Positions 9,324-64,000 of a stretch of DNA of 64,000 bases are shown here, in pieces. The position numbers and the translations under genes were made by a program. Each line of letters begins with the position of its first letter. Position 1 is the stretch's first letter. The notes under the pieces were generated by a model, which saw nothing but the letters and a program-made list of their open reading frames with translations, did no database searches and was not told the origin of the DNA. Source of the DNA: an uncultured Verrucomicrobiae bacterium (GTDB taxonomy: Bacteria; Verrucomicrobiota; Verrucomicrobiia; Chthoniobacterales; UBA10450); contig CAVYXA010000004.1 of NCBI GenBank assembly GCA_963772365.1, forward strand, positions 96,001-160,000. The letters run 5' to 3'.

Positions 9324-12300
9324 TAACCCCCGCCACCCCGCCATGTACCGATAACGGCGCGCAAGTTTCTCAAAAAATTGCCGCTCTGTTGGGGCAAATG
9401 GTGGGTTCCGAGACCGTTTCCCCAATCCAAATGGAAGTGCGTTCCCTCTTGCCATTCTCCGGCATTTTTCCAGCGGCCGTATTCAAATCCTCGGAATCTC
9501 GCAAGCTTTAACCCTGCGGCGGTGACCAGAGCCTCCTGCGATACCGTCCCCAAATACTTGCTGATAGCGGTATCTTTGGCACACGGGTCGTAACGATCTG
9601 AAAACGGATCGGCGAACGGAATCAAACCATCTAAACCGGCATAGGCACCTTGTTCAAAATCTGCGGCCCGGTAGTTATCCCATCCCCCGTTGAATCCTTC
9701 GTAATCGCCCACGCCCCACGTCGCTGGATTAGTCAGATACCAAAGACCGAGAGGATCTGTCAGGTTGACGGGATCGTTCCCGACGTAGCCGTACAGATTC
9801 ACGCCTCCATCCTCCCCGATTGGATCGCGGCTTAGCCATCTTGCAGCCACAGCATCGTACTCACGCGTGAGGCTGAAATTCAGACTGCTTCCACTGTGAA
9901 GATAAAATCCTGTAAAGCCGAAATCGGCGTCCTGACCGCCGCTTACCTTGGTTCGGTTACCGTAGGGATCGTAATCGTAACGCGCCTTGATTGCCCCGGT
10001 GCTATTTGTCATCTCCCGGATACTGCCGAGGTGATCACGCAGGTAATAGAAAAGCGTGTTGCCGCTGACAGTCTGCACCCCCTGGGCGTAATAGCGCTTA
10101 ACCACCGCATTGCTATTGTTGCGCTGCTCAGCGACTGTTACCCCCTCCCACACGAATTTCTTTGTGCTGTTGACCGTGTTCCCTGTCTTCTCCACGATCT
10201 TGACACGTCGGCTTAAGCCATCGTAGGTAAATTCGCTTCGATTCGTGGTCCCGGTGTAATTGATTGCCACCAGTCGACTGGCTGCGTCCCATTCGTAGGT
10301 CTTCGTTGCGTCATCAGTCAGATTGCCGTTTAGATCATACGAGAACGTCCGGTTCGAGCCGGAAGAAGCCGTGACCTGATAGTTGTTCGTCTTGACATTC
10401 CCATTCGTATCGGTCGCAACTACGGAGACCGTGTTGTTCCCCGGAACGACATCCACCACTCCGTCGAAATTTCCTGCCCCGTCCACCGTGGCCGCGTTTC
10501 CGCCTACTGTCACGGTCGAGGGTTCATTCACCGTCCCTCTAAAATGCAGCTTGCCTCCTCCGTTCTGGCTCGTCAGTTGATTGAGCTCGTTATAGTTCGA
10601 GGTCGTGATTGTGCTCCGCTCCTGGTTGGTATAGCGGTTGCCAGCCGCGTCGTAATCGTAGTCGTACTGCTTGAGCACTGCCCCGCTTTGCACTTTCTTT
10701 TGCAGCGCACTGCTCAATTGATCAGCCGAATCATATCTGAGAGTGTACGTGCTCGCCGTATTGGCAGCTCCCTGTCTTACCGTCCAACTCGTGATATCGC
10801 CCGCTGCATTGTAGAGATAATCGAACTGCGAAATAATGGCTGCGGAAGGGTTAAGGTTCTTGATCTGTTTCAGGCGCTGATCGCCCAGATTGTCGAAGTA
10901 AGCATACTGAATCTTCTGGCCACCAGGGATATCCTCATGATCAAGTCGGCTGGTCGTGTTCACGTAACTGTAATTAAATGTGCCCAAGACATTGGTCACG
11001 CTCTGCACACGGCCCAATGAGTCATACACCATCGAAGCAGCATTCGCCGCACCATTGATCGAGCGGCCAATCGCCCGGCCCAGCTCATCATACGAGTAGG
11101 TAATGGTGTCGTTGTTGAGCGAGCCATCAACGCTCGCCAGGCGAGCCGAACCGAGCGCGGGCGGCACTGGTACCGGATTGTAACCGTAGCTCGTCAAGCC
11201 GGTACCGTCGTTCATGCTCGCCACCCGGTTGTAAACCGGATCGCAGGTGTACGTGACGCTTGGCGTGGCGATCTGCGCGTTCGTGTAACTGATCTGTTGG
11301 AGGTTGTTGTCGAGGAAATAGCCGTAATTGGTCGTTTGCCCTTTGGCATCAGTCATCGATTTGAGCCGGCTGGTTGTGTCCTCGTATGTGTAATGGGTCG
11401 AGTTTTGGTCGGCATAAATCTTTTCCGTGACTCTGCCCTGAACGTCCCGCACCCAATTGGTCGTGTTGTGGTTTGGATCGGTGATGCCATCCAGGCTGCC
11501 GCAGTTGCACCAATTGTACACCGTGATCCGGTAAAGCGGATCTTGCATCACGATCAGGCGGCGAAGGGCATCATGCCAGTTGTGGCTCCAGCGCCCCAGC
11601 CGGTCCCGGGTCCATTCCGGATCAAGGCGGTCGTAGGTGGTTTCCTCGTAAGTGCCGTCGGGATAGGTGACCTTCGCGATCCGGTCCATTGTCTTCGTGG
11701 GGTCACCGCCAATCGCGTCGTAGTCAATCGTGACCGCGTATCCTTCCGAATCGGTTGCCGTGCGCAGCCGGCCAAAACCGTCGTAAGCAAATGAAGTAAT
11801 CGCACCCGCCACAGGCCCCGTGATGCTCTGGAGATAGCCACTGTTGTCGTAGGCGTAGGTCGTGACTTCGTTTTTTGCGTTTGTAATCGTGTGAATCTGG
11901 CCGTTTGCATAGTAGTCGTAAATCGTGGTCTGGCCCGAAGCGTCCGTCGCGGTGAGGGGCTCGTGTTGTGCGTTGTAGGTATAAGCAGCGACCTTGTCGG
12001 CCGCTTGCCCTTCTGGATCAAGACTGGCTCCGGCCGGGTTCCGTTGATACACGGTGAGCAGGTCGATTCCGTTGGCGTCGTAAGCGTAGCTGGTAACCCG
12101 ACCCAGCGGGTCGGTCACCTTGGTTGTTTTGCCGAAGCCATTGTATTCGTATTGATAAAGCTGGGTAGTGCCGTCATCCATGACACGCGCAACCTTGGAA
12201 GGTTTAAAGATCGTAACGTTCCCCGTCCCGGCGGGCCAGGTCTGCCCGGGATAATTGTTCCAGACCCGATCCTCGAACGGCATTTTGCTGCTTTCGGGGA

Positions 12301-14551
12301 CATCGGAAGCGACATTGATGTCTTCAGTGTGGAGCCAGTGGGTGATGCGCGCCTTGGTGTAGACTCCAGGCGCTTCCGCCATCGCTTTCTTGTCCCAATA
12401 GAAGGTGTCCCGATAATTAATGTATTGGTTGAAGGTGGCGATCTCGGGCGGAACCGTATTGCCTGATTCCGAGAACGGAATGGCTGAGACATTGTTATTA
12501 TATTCGACCCGTTCTTTGGCGCCCTGAGGATCGGTGACTTCAAGCCAGCGATAGCTCGAGCCGGATTCGCCCATGGCGAAGAGCGTATCACCGTATGGCG
12601 TCGTCATTTTGTTGATGAAATCGCCCGTATCGTAGGTGAATTCCGAAACGAGACCAATCGAGTCGGTAATCTTCCACAGTTGCCCGGCTTCGTTGTACTC
12701 CAGTGTGGCGACCCGGCCAAATGGATCGGTCACCTTGGTTACTTTTAGTGGGTCTCCGGTCAGCTCGTAGCTTAGAGTCGTCACCTGACCGATCGCGTCC
12801 GTGATTGCAACCAGGCGAAAGGTCCCATCGTAAGAATAGGCGAGCGCGTTCCCGTGAGGGTCGATTGACTGAGTCATAAACAGCTTGCGCGCCACCGGGG
12901 CGCCATCTGAGACCGCGAAAATCTGCCGAGAACCGTCAGGGAACCGCTTCTCGTATTGATCGGTTCCCAGCTTGACCAGGCTAACCTGGGTCTCGCGTTG
13001 CGGCGCATAGCTTTGAGTGCCGGAGTTAAATCCATTGTAGTGCAGCGTTCCGCCTCCCGGTCCGTAAGCAGTGGCGTCTGCGGCTTCATTGGCCGGATCG
13101 ATGACGATGTAGCTGATCCAATTGAAGCTCCACTTGTTCCCCAGATTGGAATAGGTTGGGGTTTGTACAGGCGCGACCTCGCGCTGCTGATAGGAAACGG
13201 CAAATTTTACTGCGGGTCCGACCGGCGGCGCATAGCTGACCGGTGTGTCGGTGATCGTGAGACTGACCCGGGCGGAGTCGACGTTGTAGTCTGCCATGCC
13301 ATCCGAGCCGCCACATTCTGGCTTAGGACATTTGACCGACGGAGCCACACACGGCGGAGGCGGCTCCGAATTACTGCCAGCGTTGCCCTTCCCCCAGACG
13401 TTCTTTCCTTCCGCTTCGCTGACCGGCTGCCAACCACTGGGCAGATCGCCCGCCGGTACAAGAAAGTAGCCCGACTGCTCCTCGTCGATCGTCTGCTGCG
13501 TGAGGAGCGTGTCGTCGCCAAACGTCGGATCCTGGGCGCGGAACCTTCCATCCTTTTCCTCGATTAAGGCGGCGTAATGGCCTACCCGCCAATTGATCAC
13601 CGAAGGAACGATTATCCTTGCTCCAAGTGAACGCTTTGCCATCTGATATCTCAAACCGAGTTTATCAGCCAGCTTTTTGACCTGAACCAATGACATCCCC
13701 CTATTAGTCGAGGCAGAGGCGAGAATCTCCTTTTGCCGATCGGGGCCGCCCAAATGCGAGGCGGCAAGAATCTGTTTCAACGCCATCGGACCACACCGAA
13801 AAGCGTCTTGCGGACGTGTCCTCATTAACGCTAACCCTTGTCGCGCCGTGGCGACTTTTTCCGTCGCCGCGCCTCGAACGTCGCGGTGATCAATCTCGCC
13901 AAACAGAGCCTCAAGGCGATCTGCTCGGCCCAGCCTGGCATTGAGCTGAGCGAGCTCACCCAAAACATAGTCAGCCAGCGCTCGCTGGCGTGGCTGGGTT
14001 GCCTTTGCGACCAGGGGCCACGCCTCTTCCCAAGCGTCCAGTGCTTTGGACCAGTGACCAGTCGCGCGCCAAATCGCTCCCAAATTGGCGAGCAATGCTG
14101 CTCGCCAAGGGGAAGCAGGGAACTGATTGAGGAAACTAGTAAATCCATCGGCCGCTTCAGGATTGTTCCGGGCAGCGAAATCTTTGATGATCGTTGCCAA
14201 CGCGAAATTTTCCGACGGTGAGGTCCTGCCGCCAACCGGGATCAATGGTTCCCGAAATACGCGTGCCGCTTCAAGCTCACCATCGGTGGGGCTGCTGGAA
14301 AAGTGCATTGCCGATCGCTGACTCATAGGCGGCAGCGTACGATTAGGCCTTGCTCCGCTCGTCGAAGCAAAAAACGTGGCTGCTTGTGCTCGTGGCTTCG
14401 GGGCCGACGAAGTTGTTGTCTCAGTGGTAGCCGCGATCAAAATCTGGACAGGCCAAACAGAGACCGCTTGTGATACTGCCACAAGGTATGAGGTGGCGCG
14501 AAGTCGCCAGTTCAATTGTGACATTCTCTTGGCTGACACCGCGCTTTTCAT
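9323..14551 (-). CDS. RHS/YD-repeat polymorphic toxin with N-terminal helical (TPR-like) and C39 peptidase domains, internal Ig-like insert and C-terminal toxin domain
   Basis: YD repeats; core end RWLSRDPIGEDGGVNLYGYVGNDPVNLTDPLGL; C39 motifs CGPMAL, WRVGHY, QDPTFG. Confidence 0.93.
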   Translation of the reverse strand: MKSAVSAKRMSQLNWRLRATSYLVAVSQAVSVWPVQILIAATTETTTSSAPKPRAQAATFFASTSGARPNRTLPPMSQRSAMHFSSSPTDGELEAARVFREPLIPVGGRTSPSENFALATIIKDFAARNNPEAADGFTSFLNQFPASPWRAALLANLGAIWRATGHWSKALDAWEEAWPLVAKATQPRQRALADYVLGELAQLNARLGRADRLEALFGEIDHRDVRGAATEKVATARQGLALMRTRPQDAFRCGPMALKQILAASHLGGPDRQKEILASASTNRGMSLVQVKKLADKLGLRYQMAKRSLGARIIVPSVINWRVGHYAALIEEKDGRFRAQDPTFGDDTLLTQQTIDEEQSGYFLVPAGDLPSGWQPVSEAEGKNVWGKGNAGSNSEPPPPCVAPSVKCPKPECGGSDGMADYNVDSARVSLTITDTPVSYAPPVGPAVKFAVSYQQREVAPVQTPTYSNLGNKWSFNWISYIVIDPANEAADATAYGPGGGTLHYNGFNSGTQSYAPQRETQVSLVKLGTDQYEKRFPDGSRQIFAVSDGAPVARKLFMTQSIDPHGNALAYSYDGTFRLVAITDAIGQVTTLSYELTGDPLKVTKVTDPFGRVATLEYNEAGQLWKITDSIGLVSEFTYDTGDFINKMTTPYGDTLFAMGESGSSYRWLEVTDPQGAKERVEYNNNVSAIPFSESGNTVPPEIATFNQYINYRDTFYWDKKAMAEAPGVYTKARITHWLHTEDINVASDVPESSKMPFEDRVWNNYPGQTWPAGTGNVTIFKPSKVARVMDDGTTQLYQYEYNGFGKTTKVTDPLGRVTSYAYDANGIDLLTVYQRNPAGASLDPEGQAADKVAAYTYNAQHEPLTATDASGQTTIYDYYANGQIHTITNAKNEVTTYAYDNSGYLQSITGPVAGAITSFAYDGFGRLRTATDSEGYAVTIDYDAIGGDPTKTMDRIAKVTYPDGTYEETTYDRLDPEWTRDRLGRWSHNWHDALRRLIVMQDPLYRITVYNWCNCGSLDGITDPNHNTTNWVRDVQGRVTEKIYADQNSTHYTYEDTTSRLKSMTDAKGQTTNYGYFLDNNLQQISYTNAQIATPSVTYTCDPVYNRVASMNDGTGLTSYGYNPVPVPPALGSARLASVDGSLNNDTITYSYDELGRAIGRSINGAANAASMVYDSLGRVQSVTNVLGTFNYSYVNTTSRLDHEDIPGGQKIQYAYFDNLGDQRLKQIKNLNPSAAIISQFDYLYNAAGDITSWTVRQGAANTASTYTLRYDSADQLSSALQKKVQSGAVLKQYDYDYDAAGNRYTNQERSTITTSNYNELNQLTSQNGGGKLHFRGTVNEPSTVTVGGNAATVDGAGNFDGVVDVVPGNNTVSVVATDTNGNVKTNNYQVTASSGSNRTFSYDLNGNLTDDATKTYEWDAASRLVAINYTGTTNRSEFTYDGLSRRVKIVEKTGNTVNSTKKFVWEGVTVAEQRNNSNAVVKRYYAQGVQTVSGNTLFYYLRDHLGSIREMTNSTGAIKARYDYDPYGNRTKVSGGQDADFGFTGFYLHSGSSLNFSLTREYDAVAARWLSRDPIGEDGGVNLYGYVGNDPVNLTDPLGLWYLTNPATWGVGDYEGFNGGWDNYRAADFEQGAYAGLDGLIPFADPFSDRYDPCAKDTAISKYLGTVSQEALVTAAGLKLARFRGFEYGRWKNAGEWQEGTHFHLDWGNGLGTHHLPQQSGNFLRNLRAVIGTWRGGGG

Positions 14552-49301: not shown

Positions 49302-50261
49302 ATGAAGCGTATTCTCATCATTCGCGGCGGCGCCTTGGGAGATTTCATTCTGACGTTGCCCGCGCTAGAGGCGCTTCGAAATGCACACGCCCAGGCGCAT
49401 ATCGAGATACTTGGCTACAACCACATCATCTCACTCGCCGAAAATCGGAGGTACACACAAGCAATCCGTTCTATCGAATACGCTCCGATGTCGGCTTTTT
49501 TCGCTGCCAATTCCGAGCTGCCGGGAGAATTGACGAATTACTTTGCCAGCTTTGATCTGACGATCAGCTATCCTTACGACCCAGACCGAATCTTTGAGAA
49601 CAACCTGCGCCGATGCGGTGTAGCAAATTTCATCCGCGGCCCGGGCAAGATCGATCCACCAAAGGACGGATTCGCCGCGGCGAACAACTCCACACACGCT
49701 GCTCGGCAATTGGCCCGACCGATGGAAGAACTGGGAATTCCCGTCAACGATTTCGCGGCGCATATTTATCCGGCGGAAGAAGATCGGCAATTCGCCCGCG
49801 AGTTCTTGCGAGACTTGCCACGACCGATCCTTGCAATCCATCCCGGAAGCGGAAGTGAGAAGAAAAATTGGCCGATTGAAAATTGGATGGAGCTCGGCTC
49901 CGAGACGCCTTCTCTGGTCGTGATCTCGGGCGAAGCCGATGAACCTCAGCGGAGGCGACTGCAAAAGGAATGGCGCGATCGTCCCGTTCGGTTCGCGACC
50001 AACCTGCCTTTAACGCAGCTCGCCGGGATTCTCGAGCAATCGATTTTCATTGGGCATGACAGCGGCATTTCGCATCTGGCAGCCGCAACCGGAGCGCAGT
50101 GCCTTTTACTGTTCGGTCCAACTGATCCACTGATTTGGGCGCCTTTGAATGAAGGCGTCCAGCTCCTCTGCGCACCCAATGGCGATTTGCGCCTGCTGGA
50201 AGCCCAGGTTGTGCGCAGTGCCCTCGATCAGGCGCTGATGCGCATCGGCATTAGCACGTAA
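49302..50261 (+). CDS. GT9 (heptosyltransferase-like) glycosyltransferase
   Basis: GALGDFILTLP, HPGSGSEKKNWP, GHDSGISHLAAA, LFGPT. Confidence 0.92.
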   Translation: MKRILIIRGGALGDFILTLPALEALRNAHAQAHIEILGYNHIISLAENRRYTQAIRSIEYAPMSAFFAANSELPGELTNYFASFDLTISYPYDPDRIFENNLRRCGVANFIRGPGKIDPPKDGFAAANNSTHAARQLARPMEELGIPVNDFAAHIYPAEEDRQFAREFLRDLPRPILAIHPGSGSEKKNWPIENWMELGSETPSLVVISGEADEPQRRRLQKEWRDRPVRFATNLPLTQLAGILEQSIFIGHDSGISHLAAATGAQCLLLFGPTDPLIWAPLNEGVQLLCAPNGDLRLLEAQVVRSALDQALMRIGIST

Positions 50262-51325
50262 AGAAACGGCGTTTGGATTTTCAAAACGCCGGGACTCATT
50301 TCATCGATGAGATCGAGGAATACTTCGTCCTCGGTCAGCGCGCGCAGTGGCGCCATCAGGAATTCCGGATTGAAGGCAATGGAAAAATCGCGCCCTTTGT
50401 ATTGAACCGCGAGCGACTCCTTCGCTTCGCCGACCTCCGGTGTATTGGCCGTGATGTCGATGTTATTCTTGCTGAAGTTGAGCTTGATCGAATTTGATTT
50501 GTCGCTGGCCAGCAGCGAGACGCGTCGCAGAGAATTCAAAAATGTTTCACGTTCGAGAGTGATTCGCTCTTTGGCTTCGCTTGGAATCACCTGTTTGTAA
50601 TTCGGATAATTACCCTCGATTAATTTTGAGACCAGCAATGTCTTATTCAGATCGAACGCCACCTGGCCGCTGCTCACGCTCATCTTCACATCGGCATCGT
50701 CGGTCAAAAGGCGTTGCAGCTCGGTGACGGCTTTGGTTGGGACAATGATGTCGGTCTCATGACTGCGAGGGAATTCGAGCTCGATGTCGACCATCGCCAG
50801 CCGTCGGCCATCCGTCGCCACCAACGTAAGCTTGTTATCCTTGAAGCTGAACAGCACACCGTTCAGTACGTAGCGAGTCTCATCAGTCGAAATCGCATAG
50901 GAAGTCTTCCGTAAACCGTCGCGTAAATCCTTCTGCCGAATCGTGACTACCTTCGCATCATCAAATTTCGGCAGTGGTGGAAATTCCTCTTCGGGCAGGC
51001 CCAGAATTTTGAAGAAGCTCTGGCCGCTTCGAATGGAAGCGGTGTTTTTCCCATCGACATCGATCTGGATTTCGCTTGAGGGCAATTCGCGAATGATGTT
51101 GAAAAGGCGCCGGGCTGGGAGCGTGGTTGCGCCCGCCTTCTCAACTTGCGCTTCGCAGCTGCCCCGCACGCCCACGTCCAGATCCGTGGTGGTGAGATGG
51201 ACTTCGTCGCCGTTGGCTTGTAGCAGAACGTTCGAGAGAATCGGCAGAGTGGTTCGAGTGCTGACGACGTTTTGGACCTGTTGCAGACCTTCCAGGAGTT
51301 TTTCTTTTGTTACGCTTACTTTCAT
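50228..51325 (-). CDS. dnaN: DNA polymerase III beta clamp
   Basis: TLPILSNVLL, DETRYVLNG, ATDGRRL, YVLMPMR. Confidence 0.97.
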   Translation of the reverse strand: MKVSVTKEKLLEGLQQVQNVVSTRTTLPILSNVLLQANGDEVHLTTTDLDVGVRGSCEAQVEKAGATTLPARRLFNIIRELPSSEIQIDVDGKNTASIRSGQSFFKILGLPEEEFPPLPKFDDAKVVTIRQKDLRDGLRKTSYAISTDETRYVLNGVLFSFKDNKLTLVATDGRRLAMVDIELEFPRSHETDIIVPTKAVTELQRLLTDDADVKMSVSSGQVAFDLNKTLLVSKLIEGNYPNYKQVIPSEAKERITLERETFLNSLRRVSLLASDKSNSIKLNFSKNNIDITANTPEVGEAKESLAVQYKGRDFSIAFNPEFLMAPLRALTEDEVFLDLIDEMSPGVLKIQTPFLYVLMPMRISA

Positions 51326-51415
51326 GAGCTCTATAGGGCGCTTAAGATGTAAAGCTTCCGATTTTATTCGGCAACCGTAATCTCTGCCTCCGAACCGGCG
51401 GGCGATCCCCGGGCA

Positions 51416-52774
51416 TTAGCGGTGAAGCGCGCTGTCGATGAACGAAATTGTCTGGCGAATTTTGTCCTGCTCGCTCATCCGTTTCTTCACCAGCTTGCAG
51501 GCATGGAGGACGGTTCCATGGTCGCGTCCGCCGAAGGCCTCTCCGATTTCGTTCAAGGATGACTTGGTCAGTTCGCGTGCGAGATACATCGCCACTTGCC
51601 GAGGAAAGGCAATGTTGGCCGGGCGACGCTTGCTGGTCATGTCGGCCAGGCGCACATCGAAATGTTCTGCCACTCGCTTCTGAATCTGTTCGATCGTGAT
51701 CGATTGTTTCCCTTCTTCCTGCAGAATATCTTTCAATAGGTGCTCGATCACTTCCTGCGTGAGAGCTTTGCCGCTCAATGATGCGAAGGACGCGACCCGC
51801 ATCAGCGCGCCTTCGAGCCTGCGCACGTTGGTGCGAATTCGATTGGCCAGAAATTCGAAGACTGCGTCATCGAGCTTGATCCCGAGAATGATCGCTTTCT
51901 TGCGCAAAATGGCCATCCGAGTCTCGATTTCGGGCGGCTGAAGTTCAGCCGTCAGGCCCCATTCGAATCGTGAAACCAGCCGGTGCTCCAGATTTGCGAT
52001 CTCGGAAGCCGGCCGATCACTGGATAGCACGATCTGTTTGTGGCCGTCAAAAAGCGTGTTGAAAGTGTGAAAGAATTCTTCCTGTGACCGTTCCTTGCCG
52101 GCGAGGAACTGAATATCGTCGATCAACAGGAGATCGGCCTGTCGATAGCGCTTCCGGAATTTAACCAAGGTGCTGTGCTGGATCGCATCGATGAATTCGT
52201 TGATGAACAGTTCGCTCGAGAGATAGATGACTTTTGTGTTTTTCTTTTTTGCCCAAACATGCTGGCCGATCGCCTGCATCAAATGCGTTTTGCCCAAACC
52301 AACTCCGCCATAAATGAAAAGCGGATTGTAGGTCCTGGCCGGCGACTGGGCGACCGCCAGCGCCGCCGAATGAGCGTACTCATTGTTCGGACCGACGACG
52401 AATGATTCGAACGTGTTGCGCGGGTTCAGTGCCAGCCCGCTGCTACTGCTTTTGTTCTCGCGCGACAAATTCGGCATCTCTTTCAACACCGCTACGTCCT
52501 CCGGCGCGATCTGTGCCGCCGTGCCCGCCGGCAATGAAAACTTTACGTCGCGCGGGCCGCCGAATGCCTCAATAATCGCCGTTTGTAATGCTGTCATGTG
52601 GTTGCTTTCGATCCAGAACTGATAAATATTGTTAGGCACGCGAAATGTGAGCGCGCGATCGCTCACCTCAATCAGTTCCACGGCGGAAAACCAGCGCTTG
52701 AAAGTATCCGGGCTCACGTGTGGTCGAAGCGCGTCTGCCAATTTCTGCCAGATCTCGGTACAGGTCTCTTTCAT
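51416..52774 (-). CDS. dnaA: Chromosomal replication initiator
   Basis: YNPLFIYGGVGLGKTHL, LLIDDIQF, RFEWGL, GGRDHGTVLHA. Confidence 0.98.
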   Translation of the reverse strand: MKETCTEIWQKLADALRPHVSPDTFKRWFSAVELIEVSDRALTFRVPNNIYQFWIESNHMTALQTAIIEAFGGPRDVKFSLPAGTAAQIAPEDVAVLKEMPNLSRENKSSSSGLALNPRNTFESFVVGPNNEYAHSAALAVAQSPARTYNPLFIYGGVGLGKTHLMQAIGQHVWAKKKNTKVIYLSSELFINEFIDAIQHSTLVKFRKRYRQADLLLIDDIQFLAGKERSQEEFFHTFNTLFDGHKQIVLSSDRPASEIANLEHRLVSRFEWGLTAELQPPEIETRMAILRKKAIILGIKLDDAVFEFLANRIRTNVRRLEGALMRVASFASLSGKALTQEVIEHLLKDILQEEGKQSITIEQIQKRVAEHFDVRLADMTSKRRPANIAFPRQVAMYLARELTKSSLNEIGEAFGGRDHGTVLHACKLVKKRMSEQDKIRQTISFIDSALHR

Positions 52775-53200
52775 CAAAACTTGTTAACAGCGTTACACAA
52801 TTGCCACATTGGCGATTCGCCTGGAAATTCGCCGGGCAAATCCTCGGTTTTGCCGGAGAATTTTGCCATCGCTCGTCGAGAAAGCGGAGAGAAAACTCGC
52901 CGCAAATGTCAAAATACGAGGGAAAAACGCGTTTTCCACGGACAAAGCACGCATCGAAGATGCGGCGAGGGAGAGGTCCATCAATGTTCCGGGTTGGTTA
53001 GGCGAGGGTTGATTCATTCTCTGGCGCGAAATTTATCAAAATCTGTTCACATGTTATTCACATCGGCTTTCCTCCCGCCCTGCCAGCGGGCTTGAGATTA
53101 GAAATCCGAGTTCACTTCGACAAGAAAAAAATCGGAATTTATTTTTTTCTGTCGTCAAAAAAATTCTTGACTGAAAAATCAATTCGGCAATCGCCCAAGG
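52775..53200. other. Candidate oriC / dnaA promoter region
   Basis: TTATTCACA at 53054, TTTTCCACG at 52932 and several degenerate boxes; AT-rich tract 53123-53182. Confidence 0.6.
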
Positions 53201-56844: not shown

Positions 56845-56910
56845 TGAAATCAGAGGCTCAACCTTATCTCACGCCTTCTCCCCTGACAAATGAGCCACAT
56901 GAACAAGTTT

Positions 56911-56992
56911 GTCATGTCGAGCGAAGTCGAGACATCCCGTGGAGGTGCCGATGGGTAATGCTACGGGGTTCCTCGACTTCGCTCGGAATGAC
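56911..56992. repeat. GTCAT..CGAGCGAAGTCGA palindromic repeat; second copy at 63808-63890
   Basis: gtcatgtcgagcgaagtcgag ... ctcgacttcgctcggaatgac. Confidence 0.85.
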
Positions 56993-57856: not shown

Positions 57857-57861
57857 TTTTC

Positions 57862-57930
57862 GCCACAGATTAACACGGATGAAACACAGATGATTTCATT
57901 TATCCGTGTAAATCCGTGTTTATCTGTGGC
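57862..57930. repeat. ACACGGAT-unit palindromic repeat
   Basis: gccacagattaacacggat ... atccgtgtttatctgtggc. Confidence 0.8.
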
Positions 57931-57945
57931 TAAGTAGCCGCCGAC

Positions 57946-59607
57946 ATGGACGCACGCCTGGCAATCGACACCGTTGTTTTGCTCGCGTACTTCATCGGGA
58001 TTGTCGTGCTTGGACTCTGGGCGGGGCGGCGCAATCGCAACCTGGAAGACTTCTCGTTAGGCTCGCGCTCGATTCCATGGTGGGCGGTGCTCGCATCCAT
58101 CATCGCCGCTGAGACAAGCGCGGCCACCTTTCTCGGCACCCCCGCTGAGGGATTTAAGACGCGCGGCTATTTTTATGGACAGCTCGCCATAGGTACCGTC
58201 CTCGCGCGGGTCATCATCGCGTACACGTTTATCAAACCGTACTACGATTATCGCGTGCAAAGCGTTTACGAATTTTTGACTGTCCGTTTTGGCACAAAAA
58301 CAAAAAATATGGCCAGCGGGGTTTTTCTATTTACGCGGGTGCTCGGGATTGGCGTGCGCCTTTATCTCGGCGGCGCCATCATGGTGGTAATCTGGCGTTA
58401 TCTCTTTCCGTCGCTGCCGGTAAATCTTAACACCTACATCTGGGGAATTCTTTTTGTCACCATCATCACGGTCGTCTACACGGCCGTCGGTGGAATCAAA
58501 GCCGTGGTCTGGACCGATCTCATCCAAGCGGTGCTGATGTTCAGCTCAGTGATCTTCGCGATTTTCTTGCTGCTGCGGCACATCCCCGGCGGGTTCGAGA
58601 CGGTGAAGACAAATCTCGGCGGCTGGTCAAACGTGAAACTTTTCCAAACTGGCTGGGATTCGCAATTGCCTTTTGGCCCGGCATTGAAAGCGATGTTGGA
58701 AGAGCCCTACACAGTCTTCGCTGCGTTCATTGGATCGACGCTGTTGACGATGGCGACGCATGGCACCGATCAGGACATGGTTCAGCGAATGTTGACCGCG
58801 CCCGATCATCACAAATCGCGATTGTCGCTCATTCTCAGCGGCATCATGGACCTCCCGATCGCGGGCGCTTTTCTGACCGTCGGCATTTTGCTTTCGGTTT
58901 ATTATGCGGTAGTTCCCGGAACGACATTGCCCGCGGCCGACAACGAGATTTTTGGCCATTACATTATTCACGAAATGCCCGTGGTGTTTCGTGGCCTTAT
59001 CATTGCCGGCGTTTTCGCGACGATGATGGGCTCCACCTCGGCCGCGCTCAACGCGCTCGCGACCAGTTTCACCAAAGATTTCTATCTGCCCTATATTCGT
59101 CCCGGCGCGACTGATCGTCAGGCCATTCGCGCTGCACGCATCGCGACCGCGATCTTCGGTGTTCTCATGATCATTGTTGCAACAATGGCGGCGAACGCTG
59201 TGCTGCAGGATGCAAAACTCACGATTATTCCGATCGCGATTGGAATTCTCGGCTACACTTACGGTGCTCTAGTCGGCGTCTTCCTTTTGGGGATGCTAAC
59301 GCGCAATCGCGGACGCGACGGTGCGAACGTCGTCGCAATGATCGTTGGCATCATGTCAGTGCTTGTGCTGTGCAAAGTCTCGATTCCAGCATTCGATTTC
59401 GTTGCATTACTGCACGGCAAACCCGTCGCGGCGTCGTGGAATTTCGGTTGGTTCATGCCCGAGTGGTGGCCGAAAATTTCTTGGCCATGGTTCGTATTTG
59501 TCGGTTGCACGGTCACGCTCGGGATAGCGGTGCTTTTCCGCACGCCCGCGTCCCAGATCGCGACCGCCAAAGCGCACGTCACCGCGGCTACTTCTTCACC
59601 CCGCTAA
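57946..59607 (+). CDS. Sodium:solute symporter family protein
   Basis: AAETSAATFLG, GGIKAVVWTD, GTDQDMVQR. Confidence 0.93.
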   Translation: MDARLAIDTVVLLAYFIGIVVLGLWAGRRNRNLEDFSLGSRSIPWWAVLASIIAAETSAATFLGTPAEGFKTRGYFYGQLAIGTVLARVIIAYTFIKPYYDYRVQSVYEFLTVRFGTKTKNMASGVFLFTRVLGIGVRLYLGGAIMVVIWRYLFPSLPVNLNTYIWGILFVTIITVVYTAVGGIKAVVWTDLIQAVLMFSSVIFAIFLLLRHIPGGFETVKTNLGGWSNVKLFQTGWDSQLPFGPALKAMLEEPYTVFAAFIGSTLLTMATHGTDQDMVQRMLTAPDHHKSRLSLILSGIMDLPIAGAFLTVGILLSVYYAVVPGTTLPAADNEIFGHYIIHEMPVVFRGLIIAGVFATMMGSTSAALNALATSFTKDFYLPYIRPGATDRQAIRAARIATAIFGVLMIIVATMAANAVLQDAKLTIIPIAIGILGYTYGALVGVFLLGMLTRNRGRDGANVVAMIVGIMSVLVLCKVSIPAFDFVALLHGKPVAASWNFGWFMPEWWPKISWPWFVFVGCTVTLGIAVLFRTPASQIATAKAHVTAATSSPR

Positions 59608-59836
59608 TTTGATTTCCAACTCGCACAACTACCGGTCATGGAATTCCCTGGTGGATTTGCGTCGGCACGATCGTCACTTTTTTGGTGGCGATCCTTTTCC
59701 GGACCGGCCCGCGAACACCATCCGCCGCGAGCTCAATAGCGATATTTTTGAGACATGGATTGACCGGACGGTTATCGCTGATTTAATCGAGGTCAGCAGC
59801 GATCATCTCACGTAATCCTCAAACTCCTGAAATCCT

Positions 59837-60157
59837 ATGGCTCACGTCGTCACCGAGAAATGTAACGGATGCAAATTCACCGATTGTGTAGAAGTCTGCC
59901 CCGTCGCCTGTTTCTACGAAATGGAAAACCAGCTGGTCATTCATCCGGAGGAATGCATCGATTGTATGGCCTGCGTCGAGGTCTGCCCGGTCCACGCCAT
60001 CTACGCGGATGGCGATGTTCCTCCCGAATTCGCGAAGGATACCGAGTTCAATGCGACCGAGTCTCACAAGATTAAGGACGCGGGCGGAGAGGCGATCACC
60101 GCAAAGAAGGACGCGCTGCCCGGCGCCTTAGACCGCAAGAAAGCGCTCGGTTATTGA
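59837..60157 (+). CDS. fdxA: FdxA-type ferredoxin
   Basis: [32 protein letters not shown]. Confidence 0.93.
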
Positions 60158-60285
60158 GTCAGGGGGCTGGCTTTCGGTGCCGGAAGGCGCCAGATCGACG
60201 GGATCGATGAGCAGATCGACCAGCTTGTTTACCAGCTTTACAAGCTCACATCCGACGAAATAAAAATTGTCGAAGAGGCCGCGAA

Positions 60286-60618
60286 ATGAAAATTCCAAAC
60301 GCGGAGCGCGCATTTATCAACGTGGCGAAACTTCGTGATTATTCGCTTGATCCGCGGCATCGGGAGGGCAAGAACAAAGCACGCGTCTTTGCCGCGGCGC
60401 TCGGATTGACCAGAGAAGACGCCGAATGGCTTCGCAAAATTCTTCTCGATGGCGTTCGTGATCACGATTGCCAACCGGGGAAGCGCACGGTGTTTGGACA
60501 GAGATACATCGTGGATTTTTCCGTGACCAAAGATAAAAGGACTGCGCCGTTGCGGAGCGTTTGGAACATCCGCCCGAACGAAGACTTTCCTCGTCTCATC
60601 ACCTGCTATGTGATATGA
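60286..60618 (+). CDS. DUF6883-like putative toxin
   Basis: PNAERAFI..KLRDYSL..H..GKNKARVF..LG..W..PRLIT; coupled to a DUF4926 gene. Confidence 0.75.
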   Translation: MKIPNAERAFINVAKLRDYSLDPRHREGKNKARVFAAALGLTREDAEWLRKILLDGVRDHDCQPGKRTVFGQRYIVDFSVTKDKRTAPLRSVWNIRPNEDFPRLITCYVI

Positions 60619-60839
60619 ATATTCCGATGTCGCCGGTGAAGCTTTTGGATGTGGTGGCGCTCCTGGTGGATAAGCCCGCCGAAGGTTTGACCACTGGTCA
60701 TGTTGGTACGGTCGTGGAACTGTTGTCGCCCGACGTTTTCGAAGTGGAATTTCTAGATCCAACCGGGCGCACTTTTGCTCTTACCGAACTTAAGCGAGAT
60801 GAAATTCTGGTTCTGAAACACGAGCCGGTCGCCGCGTGA
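60615..60839 (+). CDS. DUF4926 protein, putative antitoxin
   Basis: LLDVVALLVD..GLTTGHVGTVVE..FEVEF. Confidence 0.85.
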   Translation: MNIPMSPVKLLDVVALLVDKPAEGLTTGHVGTVVELLSPDVFEVEFLDPTGRTFALTELKRDEILVLKHEPVAA

Positions 60840-61045
60840 GTGAGGGAAGCGATACCCGAGTCGAACAACTCGCCGCCGCCAAGACCGGTCACGAGCAAAC
60901 CGCGCTCCAGCGCCAGATCGACGCGACCGACGCGCAGATCGACCAGCTTGTTTACCAGCTCTACGAGCTCACGCCGGAGGAAATCAAAATCATCGAAGCG
61001 GCCTCGGCGCCAGCTCCGGCCCGACAAGGGGAATCTGCGAAGTGA
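60836..61045 (+). CDS. Mini-ORF consisting of the R-M C-terminal tail (repeat 2)
   Basis: Open frame coupled by GTGA overlaps to both neighbours; translation unproven. Confidence 0.5.
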   Translation: MSEGSDTRVEQLAAAKTGHEQTALQRQIDATDAQIDQLVYQLYELTPEEIKIIEAASAPAPARQGESAK

Positions 61046-61298
61046 AATACAAGCTGTCCAGCCACGCGGAGGAAGAATTGATCTTACGCAAGATTCCGTG
61101 GCATCTCGTGGACTCCCTCATGCAGAAGCCGCAGCAGGCTGTTCCTGAACGGGGGAGCAGAAAAGCATATCAGTCGCAATTCGACTTTGGCGATGGTAGA
61201 ATCTTTCTGTTGCGAGCGATTGTCGATGATACGGTCGATCCGGCCATAGGGTGACGATTTATCGGACAAAGAGAATTAAGAAATATTGGAAGCCATGA
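61042..61298 (+). pseudogene. DUF4258-like putative toxin with a 1-nt deletion near 61249
   Basis: LSSHAEEE..R; adding one base restores DPAI-x-VTIYRTKRIKKYWKP ending in an ATGA overlap with the next gene. Confidence 0.75.
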
Positions 61299-61492
61299 AA
61301 GTAACCTACGACCAGGAAGTCGATATTCTGCGGATTCTATTCAGCAATACACCTATCGAAGAGAGTGACGAGGATAAGCCAGGCGTGATTCTCGATTACG
61401 ACAAAGAGGGGAACATTGTCGGAATGGAAATCCTCGATGCTTCGAAACGAGTGGAGAATCCTCGCGCATTCGAATACGCCGTGGCCGGCTAA
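61295..61492 (+). CDS. DUF2283 protein, putative antitoxin
   Basis: MKVTYDQEVDILRI..ESDEDKPGVILDYDKEGNIVGMEILDAS. Confidence 0.9.
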   Translation: MKVTYDQEVDILRILFSNTPIEESDEDKPGVILDYDKEGNIVGMEILDASKRVENPRAFEYAVAG

Positions 61493-61663
61493 AGCTGGCG
61501 CGTGCTGGAGTTAAACTAACAACTCGCCGCCGCCAAAATCACGCACGAGCAAACCGCGCTCAAGCGTCCGATCGACAGCCGACGCGCAGATCGATCAGCT
61601 CATTTACCAGCTCTACGAGCTCACGCCGGAGGAAGTCAAAATCATCGAAGCGGCCTCTGCGCC

Positions 61664-61797
61664 CGATTATGTCGATATCATGAGTCAAGCGCATCTCGCC
61701 GTAGAGGGTTTGATGCAATCGAACCTGTCGCTGCCCAGGGCACGCCGAGCGCGTTGAACCGCGGCGCAAAGACGGCGGTTGGATCAAGATCGGCCAT
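61664..61797 (-). pseudogene. Truncated, frameshifted nucleotidyltransferase (MNT-like) N-terminus
   Basis: MADLDPTAVFAPRFNALGVPWAATGSIAS / LYGEMRLTHDIDII, cut off at repeat 3. Confidence 0.7.
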
Positions 61798-61987
61798 GCA
61801 AAGTCAGCCGCCGTAATTCAGCAGCGACCCGTTTGTCGCTCCAGTCCGGATGTTGCTCACGCAGCACTGCCGCCTTCAACCTGCGCATCGAGCGAATAAA
61901 ACCAAGCGCGAGCTCGGCCCGGCGTTCCAGCGACATCGTTCGCAATGCCTTGATCTGCTCCGGATGTAAGCCGCCATCGGTAAACAT
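61784..61987 (-). CDS. Small helical protein of the type found upstream of nucleotidyltransferase genes
   Basis: LRTMSLERRAEL..LREQHPDWS; overlaps the start of the MNT remnant. Confidence 0.7.
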   Translation of the reverse strand: MFTDGGLHPEQIKALRTMSLERRAELALGFIRSMRRLKAAVLREQHPDWSDKRVAAELRRLTLHGRS

Positions 61988-61996
61988 GCGGGTAAT

Positions 61997-63802
61997 TTAC
62001 TGTTGTTTCTTTTCGCTCGCCAGTTTGATTCCCAAGTCGCGTAACTGGCGTGGATCGCCTTCGGCCGGCGATTGAGACATCAAGTCCATGCCGCGATTGT
62101 TTTTCGGGAACGCCATCACGTCGCGGATGGATTGTTCGCCACACACGAGCATGACCAGACGATCGAGACCGAGAGCGATGCCGCCATGCGGCGGCGCGCC
62201 CATCCGGAGTGCGCGGAGCAAATGGCCGAACAGCGTTTGCTGATCCTGCGGATTAACGCCGAGGATCTCGAACATCTTCTTCTGCAATTCCGGTTCGTGA
62301 ATTCGAATGCTCCCGCCGCCGATCTCGACCCCGTTCAAGACGACGTCGTAGGCTTCGGCGCGAATGTCGGGAAATTTCTTTTCTTCCAATAAAGGAATAT
62401 CTTCCACCTTCGGGCGGGTGAATGGATGATGCATTGCGTTCCATTTGTTTTCCTCCGCGCTCCATTGCAGGAGCGGGAAATCTGTGACCCAGAGGAAATC
62501 CAATTGCATGGAATCGACGACCAGCTTCTGCATTTCGGCGATGCGCAATCGCAAACGCCCCAGGACCTCGCACGCGATTTCCCATTTGTCAGCCGCGAAC
62601 AAAATCAAATCGCCTTCTTCGATTTTCAGTTTCGATTGAAGCGCAGTTTTCTCGGTTCCGCTGAAAAATTTCACAATCGGCGATTTCCATTCCCCACCTT
62701 CGACTTTGATGAAGGCGAGACCTTTCGCTCCGAATGTCTTGGCAGTTTCAGTTAGCTCATCGGACTGGCCAATCGTCAACGACGCAAAATTCTTGGCATT
62801 AATCGCTTTCACCACGCCGCCGGAATCGAGCGTGCTGCGAAAAAGTTTGAAGCTGCTCGCGCGAAAATCATCGCCAATATCGACAAGTTCCATCCCAAAT
62901 CGGCGATCCGGTTTGTCGCTGCCGAATCGGCCGACGGCTTCGCGATAGGTCAGGCGGTCGAATGGAAGTTTGATATCGATGTTGTCCGCCACGGCGGATT
63001 CGTCCCATGGCGAACGCACGGCCTTGAAGATTGCCGCCAGCATTCCTTCGGTCAGCGCGAAAATATCCGCCGGCTCGACAAACGACGCTTCGATGTCGAT
63101 CTGGGTAAACTCCGGTTGACGATCGGCACGAAGATCTTCGTCACGAAAGCATTTCGCGATCTGGAAATATTTCTCCACGCCCGCGACCATGAGCAGTTGT
63201 TTGTATTGCTGCGGTGCCTGCGGAAGGGCATAGAATTTTCCGGGCGCCAAGCGACTCGGCACGAGGAAATCACGCGCGCCTTCCGGAGTGCTTTTGGAAA
63301 GAATCGGTGTCTCAACCTCGACATATCCCTGGCCATCGAGATAATCGCGTGTCGCTTTCGCGACTTTGTGCCGTATCCGCAGATTGCGGGCGAGATGCGG
63401 CCGGCGCAGATCGAAATAGCGATAGGTGAGCCGCAAATCTTCGTTGTGCGTCTCAGTGTCGAGTTGGAACGGCAAATCGTCCGCCCGATTCAAAATCTTG
63501 AGCTCGCTCGGAACAACTTCTATGTCGCCGGTTTCGAGATTCGAATTTTCCGTGCCCGGAACGCGCGGAGCGACGCGACCGATTACTTGGATCACGTCTT
63601 CGCTTCGAAGCGTATGCGCCTGTTTCGCAACTTCGGCGTTTTCCTCCGGGCGGAAGACAACCTGGGTTAGCCCTTCGCGATCACGCAGATCGATAAAGAT
63701 CACGCCGCCATGGTCGCGGGTGACGTTCACCCATCCGGCGAGTGTGACTTGTTTGCCGATGTCGATCTTACGAAGTGAATTGCAATTGTGCGTGCGAAAC
63801 AT
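61997..63802 (-). CDS. aspS: Aspartate--tRNA ligase (probably non-discriminating)
   Basis: MFRTHNC, RDHGGVIFIDLRD, FRDEDLRADRQPEF, APPHGGIALGLDR. Confidence 0.97.
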   Translation of the reverse strand: MFRTHNCNSLRKIDIGKQVTLAGWVNVTRDHGGVIFIDLRDREGLTQVVFRPEENAEVAKQAHTLRSEDVIQVIGRVAPRVPGTENSNLETGDIEVVPSELKILNRADDLPFQLDTETHNEDLRLTYRYFDLRRPHLARNLRIRHKVAKATRDYLDGQGYVEVETPILSKSTPEGARDFLVPSRLAPGKFYALPQAPQQYKQLLMVAGVEKYFQIAKCFRDEDLRADRQPEFTQIDIEASFVEPADIFALTEGMLAAIFKAVRSPWDESAVADNIDIKLPFDRLTYREAVGRFGSDKPDRRFGMELVDIGDDFRASSFKLFRSTLDSGGVVKAINAKNFASLTIGQSDELTETAKTFGAKGLAFIKVEGGEWKSPIVKFFSGTEKTALQSKLKIEEGDLILFAADKWEIACEVLGRLRLRIAEMQKLVVDSMQLDFLWVTDFPLLQWSAEENKWNAMHHPFTRPKVEDIPLLEEKKFPDIRAEAYDVVLNGVEIGGGSIRIHEPELQKKMFEILGVNPQDQQTLFGHLLRALRMGAPPHGGIALGLDRLVMLVCGEQSIRDVMAFPKNNRGMDLMSQSPAEGDPRQLRDLGIKLASEKKQQ

Positions 63803-63807
63803 GGGTT

Positions 63808-63890
63808 TGTCATTCCGAGCGAAGTCGAGGAAGCCCGTGGAATGTCGTGGGGTGCTGCCGCGGGATCCTTCGACTTCGCTCAGAATGACA
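63808..63890. repeat. GTCATTCCGAGCGAAGTCGA palindromic repeat
   Basis: tgtcattccgagcgaagtcga ... tcgacttcgctcagaatgaca. Confidence 0.85.
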
Positions 63891-64000
63891 AGCTGGATTG
63901 CCCTTGCAAGTGCGCAAGTAACTGATCGTGCGACACGAGCTTCTCTTCCCGCGTGGCCAGTTTCTTCACCTTTACCTGTGGCCATTCATCGCCGTAAAGC
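63880..64000 (-). CDS. hisS: Probable 3' end of histidine--tRNA ligase (partial)
   Basis: Manual translation LYGDEWPQVKVKKLATREEKLV resembles the end of an anticodon-binding domain; hisS-aspS is a common gene order. Confidence 0.6.
   Translation of the reverse strand, partial: LYGDEWPQVKVKKLATREEKLVSHDQLLAHLQGQSSLSF

Follow-up and report, generated by a model that had tools for sequence, protein, structure and literature searches.

Orphan copies of a Type IIG restriction-modification gene end bracket toxin-antitoxin-type gene pairs in a verrucomicrobial genome and may serve as joints for homologous recombination

Integron arrays and integrase-less attC clusters consist of compact, co-oriented cassettes, often with toxin-antitoxin or defence genes, in which a repeat lies just past the stop codon. 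Rhs orphans, in the available part of their description, form polar arrays downstream of a large gene, with repeats of the conserved part of that gene, and homologous recombination was proposed for them with no integrase involved (Jackson et al., 2009, PMC2935791). At restriction-modification (R-M) loci, long direct repeats of variable length have been found without mobile-element genes, and the accessible sections of the same work treat how diverse the alleles of the target-recognition domain are in Type IIG enzymes (Furuta, Abe and Kobayashi, 2010, PMC2853133). In the pneumococcal tvr locus (SpnIV), the shuffling of Type I hsdS genes is driven by an encoded recombinase, TvrR; the portion of the report at hand also places a toxin-antitoxin pair inside the excisable circle and notes that the longer repeats also allow excision independently of the recombinase, at a low level (Kwun et al., 2018, PMC6265443).

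The window analysed here is the whole stretch of 64,000 nucleotides, from the 3.35-Mb genome of an uncultured Verrucomicrobiae bacterium. Three direct repeats, R1 (60187-60283), R2 (60864-61008) and R3 (61518-61662), all on the plus strand, stand between a ferredoxin gene (fdxA-like, 59837..60157, plus strand, matching the Fer4 families) and an ORF on the minus strand (61997..63985) for an aminoacyl-tRNA synthetase, which we take to be aspS on the basis of its motifs and a preliminary description. The order given there, R1 - DUF6883/DUF4926 - R2 - DUF4258-type/DUF2283 - R3, agrees with the Pfam matches, the DUF4258-type gene being frameshifted. Identity is 88% between R2 and R3 (147 bp, including a gap of 2 bp in R3) and 85% between R2 and R1 (97 bp). 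Searches of the whole genome by tblastn, blastn and nhmmer gave no further strong copy; nhmmer added a single weak match (E 0.004), which falls on the upstream part of the model. R2, which lies in an open frame at 60836-61045 and is translated as QRQIDATDAQIDQLVYQLYELTPEEIKIIE, aligns with the tail found in a relative (G368). R1 is shorter than R2 and R3 at its 5' end and lies 30 bp past the fdx stop codon. The cargo stop codons precede the next repeat by 24 bp (R2) and 25 bp (R3), and the frames of R1 (60187..60289) and R2 end in a stop codon that overlaps the start of the following gene (ATGA at R1). Both the 2-bp deletion in R3 and the 1-bp frameshift in the DUF4258-type gene could be assembly errors. 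The heptamer GTTAAAC just 5' of R3 resembles an integron core motif; it is absent before R1 and R2 and was taken as chance. No sigma-70-like promoter was found in 59600-62100.

The first bracketed pair consists of DUF6883 (60286..60618, PF21814, E 6.6e-28), a predicted RNase toxin of the BECR-Tox3 type, and DUF4926 (60615..60839, PF16277, E 3.2e-20), its predicted antitoxin or immunity partner. The second has a DUF4258-type predicted toxin (61042..61298, frameshifted near 61248) followed by DUF2283 (61295..61492, PF10049, E 1.2e-21), a predicted antitoxin 92% identical to its G368 counterpart; all four genes lie on the plus strand. On its own, the DUF4258-type gene matched no Pfam family, and its counterpart in G368 is intact (84 aa) with PF14076 over the cut-off. 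In the available part of a preprint, DUF6883 counts as a predicted BECR RNase partnered by DUF4926, and DUF4258 is assigned to a colicin-like group (bioRxiv 10.64898/2026.08.28.747851). Each pair is thus made of two small overlapping genes, a toxin-fold family and a partner, and both are predicted from sequence to be toxin-antitoxin-type pairs, the toxicity and its neutralisation being predictions as well; the cargo genes scanned with PADLOC and NCBIfam gave no match. Between R3 and aspS, the opposite strand bears a third pair, which is truncated. It comprises a nucleotidyltransferase fragment (AbiEii-like toxin, 61666..61787) that ends at R3, with weak AbiEii matches all below the cut-off, and an Rv0078B-like small gene (61784..61987, PF18993, E 0.025, below the cut-off), a possible antitoxin directly after aspS. 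The segment 61666-62032 is 75% identical to locus L124 of G368, in which the nucleotidyltransferase gene has 182 aa. Rv0078B-like homologues follow aspS in several relatives, and the order tail - Rv0078B-like - aspS is also found in L125, L134, L145 and L259. We infer R3 to be the oldest resident end of the array.

Other elements of the window lie outside the array. REP-like inverted-repeat pairs at 56907-56992 and 63805-63894 belong to a family present in ~45 bins of 150 bp genome-wide, and a 22-bp inverted repeat at 57859-57933, between the OGG glycosylase and SSF genes, has related copies in ~12 bins. A 1742-aa YD-repeat (Rhs-like) protein is encoded on the minus strand at 9326-14551. The genes dnaA and dnaN are found at 50231-52777, ~8 kb from the array, which may place this hot spot close to the origin of replication.

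The preliminary description had assigned the repeat to the C-terminus of Type IIG R-M enzymes, and this assignment holds. R1-R3 correspond to the final 33-48 codons of a Type IIG R-M gene of ~1000 aa, and the repeat peptide mostly closes ORFs of ~950-1100 codons (80 loci). Four tail-bearing long proteins carried N6_Mtase, Eco57I and TaqI_C, and three of the four HSDR_N; with PADLOC, two tail-bearing proteins scored E 3e-202 and 3e-196 for REase_MTase_IIG. The tail profile gave only generic coiled coils among solved structures (best E 0.015), and the 47-aa tail had no match in plasmid and phage collections, a weak test with so short a query. The full-length Type IIG gene is absent from this genome (90% complete): no Eco57I match passed the cut-off, and a search with the family enzyme gave strong matches nowhere but at the tail. 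The absence of a full R-M gene, claimed earlier for the window, extends to the genome as regards Type IIG genes over the cut-off, and the absence of integrases and transposases from the window also stood, as none of their families was found among 38 of its 41 ORFs of at least 200 aa (NCBIfam, at a strict E of 1e-30). The Type IIG gene was likely deleted here, to judge from sequence, and the array would then have outlived it, with R1 as the last ~33 codons of the deleted gene.

Comparison of the fdx-aspS interval among relatives revealed the full gene, remnants, empty sites and other inserts. The tail was matched in 37 of 355 genomes of the family, and aspS in 239 of 261. A full R-M gene sits between fdx and aspS in relatives, beginning where R1 lies here. 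The R-M gene adjoining aspS is intact in L125, L130, L131 and L134, frameshifted in L127 and L136, internally deleted in L124 and L128, and reduced to the tail in L137, L145, L156 and L158; the deletion remnants in L137 and L145 resemble R1 but their junctions differ. A further 100 loci were picked via aspS, among the 150 matches listed of 243. The site is empty in 26 of these, fdx and aspS being no more than 150 bp apart, and R-M pieces survive in four, either C-terminal (L259), N-terminal (L258 and L266, by eye) or from the middle of the gene (L271). Since relatives hold the intact gene, empty sites or R-M pieces at this place, R1 is probably what remains of a deleted gene. That deletion preferentially spares the tail was also considered, and it is unsupported because N-terminal and middle remnants occur as well. 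The site accepts other inserts, given that an ~800-aa gene fills it in four genomes without a tail (L299, L308, L309 and L315). In the same-genus genome G001 no tail was matched, and neither fdx nor SSF was found within 7 kb of aspS. Homologues of DUF6883 stand behind the full gene in L123 and L127, and as they share only 37-39% identity with the window copy they appear to be separate captures. In L132 the order is tail - DUF6883/DUF4926 - gene of no known kind - tail - aspS. R2 with the second cargo pair is 72% identical over 633 bp to L124, in which the same cargo accompanies a longer R-M remnant. Named records with this layout bear the names Verrucomicrobia or Chthoniobacterales.

The stacking of tails is not peculiar to this genome. 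Among 159 loci, the tail lies in a long frame (at least 300 codons or running off the contig) in 139, and extra copies occur in 27, all 34 of them downstream and on the same strand. After removal of 11 duplicate or same-record loci, extra tails remained in 26 of 130 loci with the tail in a long frame, again all downstream on the same strand (33/33), with ~200 kb of sequence in view upstream and ~540 kb downstream. When 79 long R-M proteins were searched against their own loci, 20 duplications of the tail, two of the N-terminal part and none of the middle were detected. In the G379 family, the tail was matched in 66 of 116 genomes; 39 loci were taken from it, chosen for full genes or multiple matches so that rates are not unbiased, and extras were present in 10 of the 25 loci with a long R-M frame (18 extras, all 18 downstream). 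A search that started from the cargo found an array in G640 ordered gene - tail - DUF6883/DUF4926 - tail - two genes - tail - DUF2283-type pair. The comparison bears out the preliminary description on three points: the repeat is homologous to R-M gene ends, relatives differ in their cargo, and the arrangement occurs more than once, indeed in different phyla.

The cargo is ordinary mobile material, because only two of 20 DUF6883 homologues sit behind a tail, the other 18, including the closest, being located elsewhere. Recognisable cargo includes ParE/RelE, PIN, YoeB, Fic, HEPN, TIR, Schlafen and Dsr2, together with many genes without a family. The idea that toxin-antitoxin cassettes are captured thus fits both pairs at this locus but is too narrow elsewhere, where cargo goes beyond such pairs. 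Seven extra tails extend over ~16 kb in L385 (G380:C2:190500-210400), with HEPN, PIN, Schlafen, flavodoxin and aminotransferase genes among the cargo. A full Dsr2 anti-phage gene (1245 aa) lies between R-M tail copies in L375:4341-8075 (G461). In L381, L382 and L383 a Schlafen-group-3 helicase gene is followed by tails, and in L381 and L382 it stands behind an N-terminal R-M remnant. Near-empty units also exist: two tails ~70-80 bp apart that include a REP-like element in L230 and L086, and closely stacked tails in L369.

Units recur at different positions and sites. A 120-aa cargo gene with the same stop-to-tail junction is the fourth unit in L373, the first in L377 and part of another neighbourhood in L383. 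A 450-aa cargo gene is first in L353 and L235 and second in L173, with a junction common to L353 and L173, and an RHH/ParE pair stands behind the tail in four loci. Empty and filled sites can be set against each other in L374/L185, L358-L363-L364/L235 and L352/L348-L353-L368. In L167 and L168 the R-M gene is 94% identical up to the stop codon, and the sequences are unrelated beyond it. The genomes compared are different species, so a 'different site' may partly reflect rearrangement.

The conservation of the gene itself bears on the tail as a possible place of exchange. In 23 full alleles, ~1% of the pairs align at 400-1100 bp before the stop codon, as against ~65% in the last 200 bp and at 1400-1700 bp upstream. 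Downstream of the hypervariable specificity region of ~1 kb, conservation is confined to the last ~200 bp, and as the region at 400-1100 bp barely aligns, a swap of specificity has no downstream anchor other than the tail. The orphans were compared with the resident tail after four weaker ones had been dropped; the 29 kept gave pS 0.35, pN 0.08 and pN/pS 0.23, and the core pN/pS was 0.25 for orphans (n=18) vs 0.34 for 119 full-full pairs. An orphan is closest to its own locus in 18 of 29 cases, six of the 29 contain indels, and some are altered at near-invariant residues. The pN/pS values, the closeness to the own locus and the indels fit orphans that are displaced ends of related, diverged functional alleles, now decaying. 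The distance from cargo stop to orphan has a median of 25 bp (n=25; 21 of 25 within 69 bp), and longer R-M remnants ahead of the tail were seen only in L171 and L124. A half-tail mosaic test for crossovers within the tails gave -0.009 for shared-upstream (n=9) and +0.046 for shared-downstream pairs (n=24, not independent), with a background of +0.004.

The most likely reading, to which we give a probability of about 0.6, is that recombination at the R-M tail during allele exchange stacks cassettes, the tail being reused as a homologous-recombination joint. A unit would be born when incoming DNA, which brings a different allele and the gene behind it, recombines within the conserved part, and the far end of the incoming DNA is joined illegitimately to the resident tail, so that the old tail and its cargo are displaced downstream. 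A process of this kind, homology-facilitated illegitimate recombination, was reportedly described by de Vries and Wackernagel. A gene bracketed by two tails could afterwards be gained, swapped or lost via ordinary RecA crossovers in the tails, and the change of cassette would often come together with a swap of specificity. RecA and ComEC families were found in this genome, in which two additions would have come first and the enzyme gene would then have been deleted except for R1; cargo of the toxin-antitoxin kind would resist looping out. The array of this genome is probably a remnant in decay, which makes the window an informative end state. The recombination handle of the preliminary description is retained insofar as units with shared cargo-tail junctions occur at different sites and empty sites are found, but the handle is the gene's own end and not a dedicated site.

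The main rival is that the orphans are passive scars, each left by a one-off 3'-end replacement or by an insertion with long target duplication and not reused, the orphan surviving because it supplies a ribosome-binding site and a stop-start overlap to the next gene. The overlaps at R1 and R2 agree with this, and so do the ends of the orphans, fixed at 3' and spread over ~150 bp at 5' (model positions 3 to 156), as erosion predicts. In addition, aspS displays the same kind of duplication: among 115 loci examined, its 3' end is duplicated clearly in L293 (G220; 168 bp, 87%) and weakly in L284 (G099) and L124 (G368). The displacement of 3' ends is therefore not unique to the R-M gene, and to this extent the handle is less special than claimed. 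Genes lie between the aspS 3'-end copies, which in L124 bracket the R-M remnant and its cargo. The rate is lower there, ~1-3 of 115 as against 26 of 130 at R-M tails, in two sets sampled differently. Scars used once do not account well for a cargo that recurs, with an identical junction to its tail, at different positions and sites, for arrays of up to 5-7 tails (L373, L385), or for tails that persist without a co-oriented gene behind them (R3, L137, L145). We consider this explanation unlikely, though clearly the strongest of the competitors.

Far less probable is a site-specific recombinase or a REP-associated tyrosine transposase acting in trans on a site within or beside the tail, comparable to integrons or the pneumococcal tvr. 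The strict polarity and tight junctions are integron-like, Y1_Tnp genes stand behind the tail in L019, L076, L177 and L366, and PF00589 integrases have eight matches in this genome, all of them outside the array's contig. The variable 5' ends of the orphans beside their fixed 3' ends argue against a site-specific crossover, however, and the repeats fold into hairpins or attC-like structures no better than shuffled sequences (z -1.16 to +0.71, six strands). Moreover, Y1_Tnp is absent from the window's array, and no integrase family was found among 120 scanned proteins (selected cargo, flanking and R-M proteins). That the orphans work as small proteins in their own right, modulating the enzyme as free copies of its C-terminal helices, is the least credible alternative, for although their pN/pS is low and an in-frame start overlaps the upstream stop in R2, L028, L055, L091 and L406, the indels, the changes at near-invariant residues, the variable 5' truncation and the loss of the enzyme itself from this genome all speak against it, and a low pN/pS is equally expected for ends of once-functional alleles.

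If reuse of the tail as a joint is taken further, Type IIG R-M genes would run a cross-phylum, integrase-free cassette platform with their last 150 bp as the attachment site, in active exchange between loci and species, and each specificity swap could import a new defence gene. We propose this wider version tentatively and hold it somewhat short of an even chance. Were it true, the arrays would be a harvestable source of defence systems still to be recognised, outliving the enzyme gene as in the window, and there would be a concrete route for the build-up of defence genes beside R-M systems, as the recombination that diversifies the enzyme gene imports its neighbours. The tail profile offers a simple way to locate cargo, the cargo genes without a family are candidates for new defence genes, and the model can be tested experimentally.

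In the literature searched, a set that left most subscription papers outside its scope, the architecture is undescribed. Like integron arrays, it has compact, co-oriented cassettes closed by a repeat just past the stop codon; unlike them, it has no attC-like fold, no fixed 5' boundary and no linked integrase, and the repeat is coding sequence, so the array is not an integron. With tvr, as far as the available text describes it, it shares an R-M locus, direct repeats and a toxin-antitoxin pair between them, whereas tvr changes specificity, collects no foreign genes and uses a dedicated recombinase (Kwun et al., 2018). The insertions with long target duplication, in the sections available, have a repeat of more than 30 bp and variable length, a one-copy empty site and no mobile-element gene, as do our loci, whose empty and filled sites come from different species, but there the R-M genes are the inserted unit, and here the R-M end is the repeat and is used repeatedly (Furuta, Abe and Kobayashi, 2010). 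The units between tails are non-R-M genes; L124 may be an R-M-containing inserted unit at aspS. The displacement of Rhs C-termini, in the part of the account at hand, resembles our arrays in that orphans follow the parent gene with one polarity, repeat sequence conserved in the parent and involve no integrase, but an Rhs orphan bears a variable tip belonging to the same protein, whereas in our arrays only the extreme end of the gene is repeated, in most cases without the specificity region, and whole genes unrelated to it make up the cargo (Jackson et al., 2009). The cross-phylum architecture is thus a variant of homology-driven orphan arrays that departs from Rhs displacement and from insertion with long target duplication in one defining feature of each.
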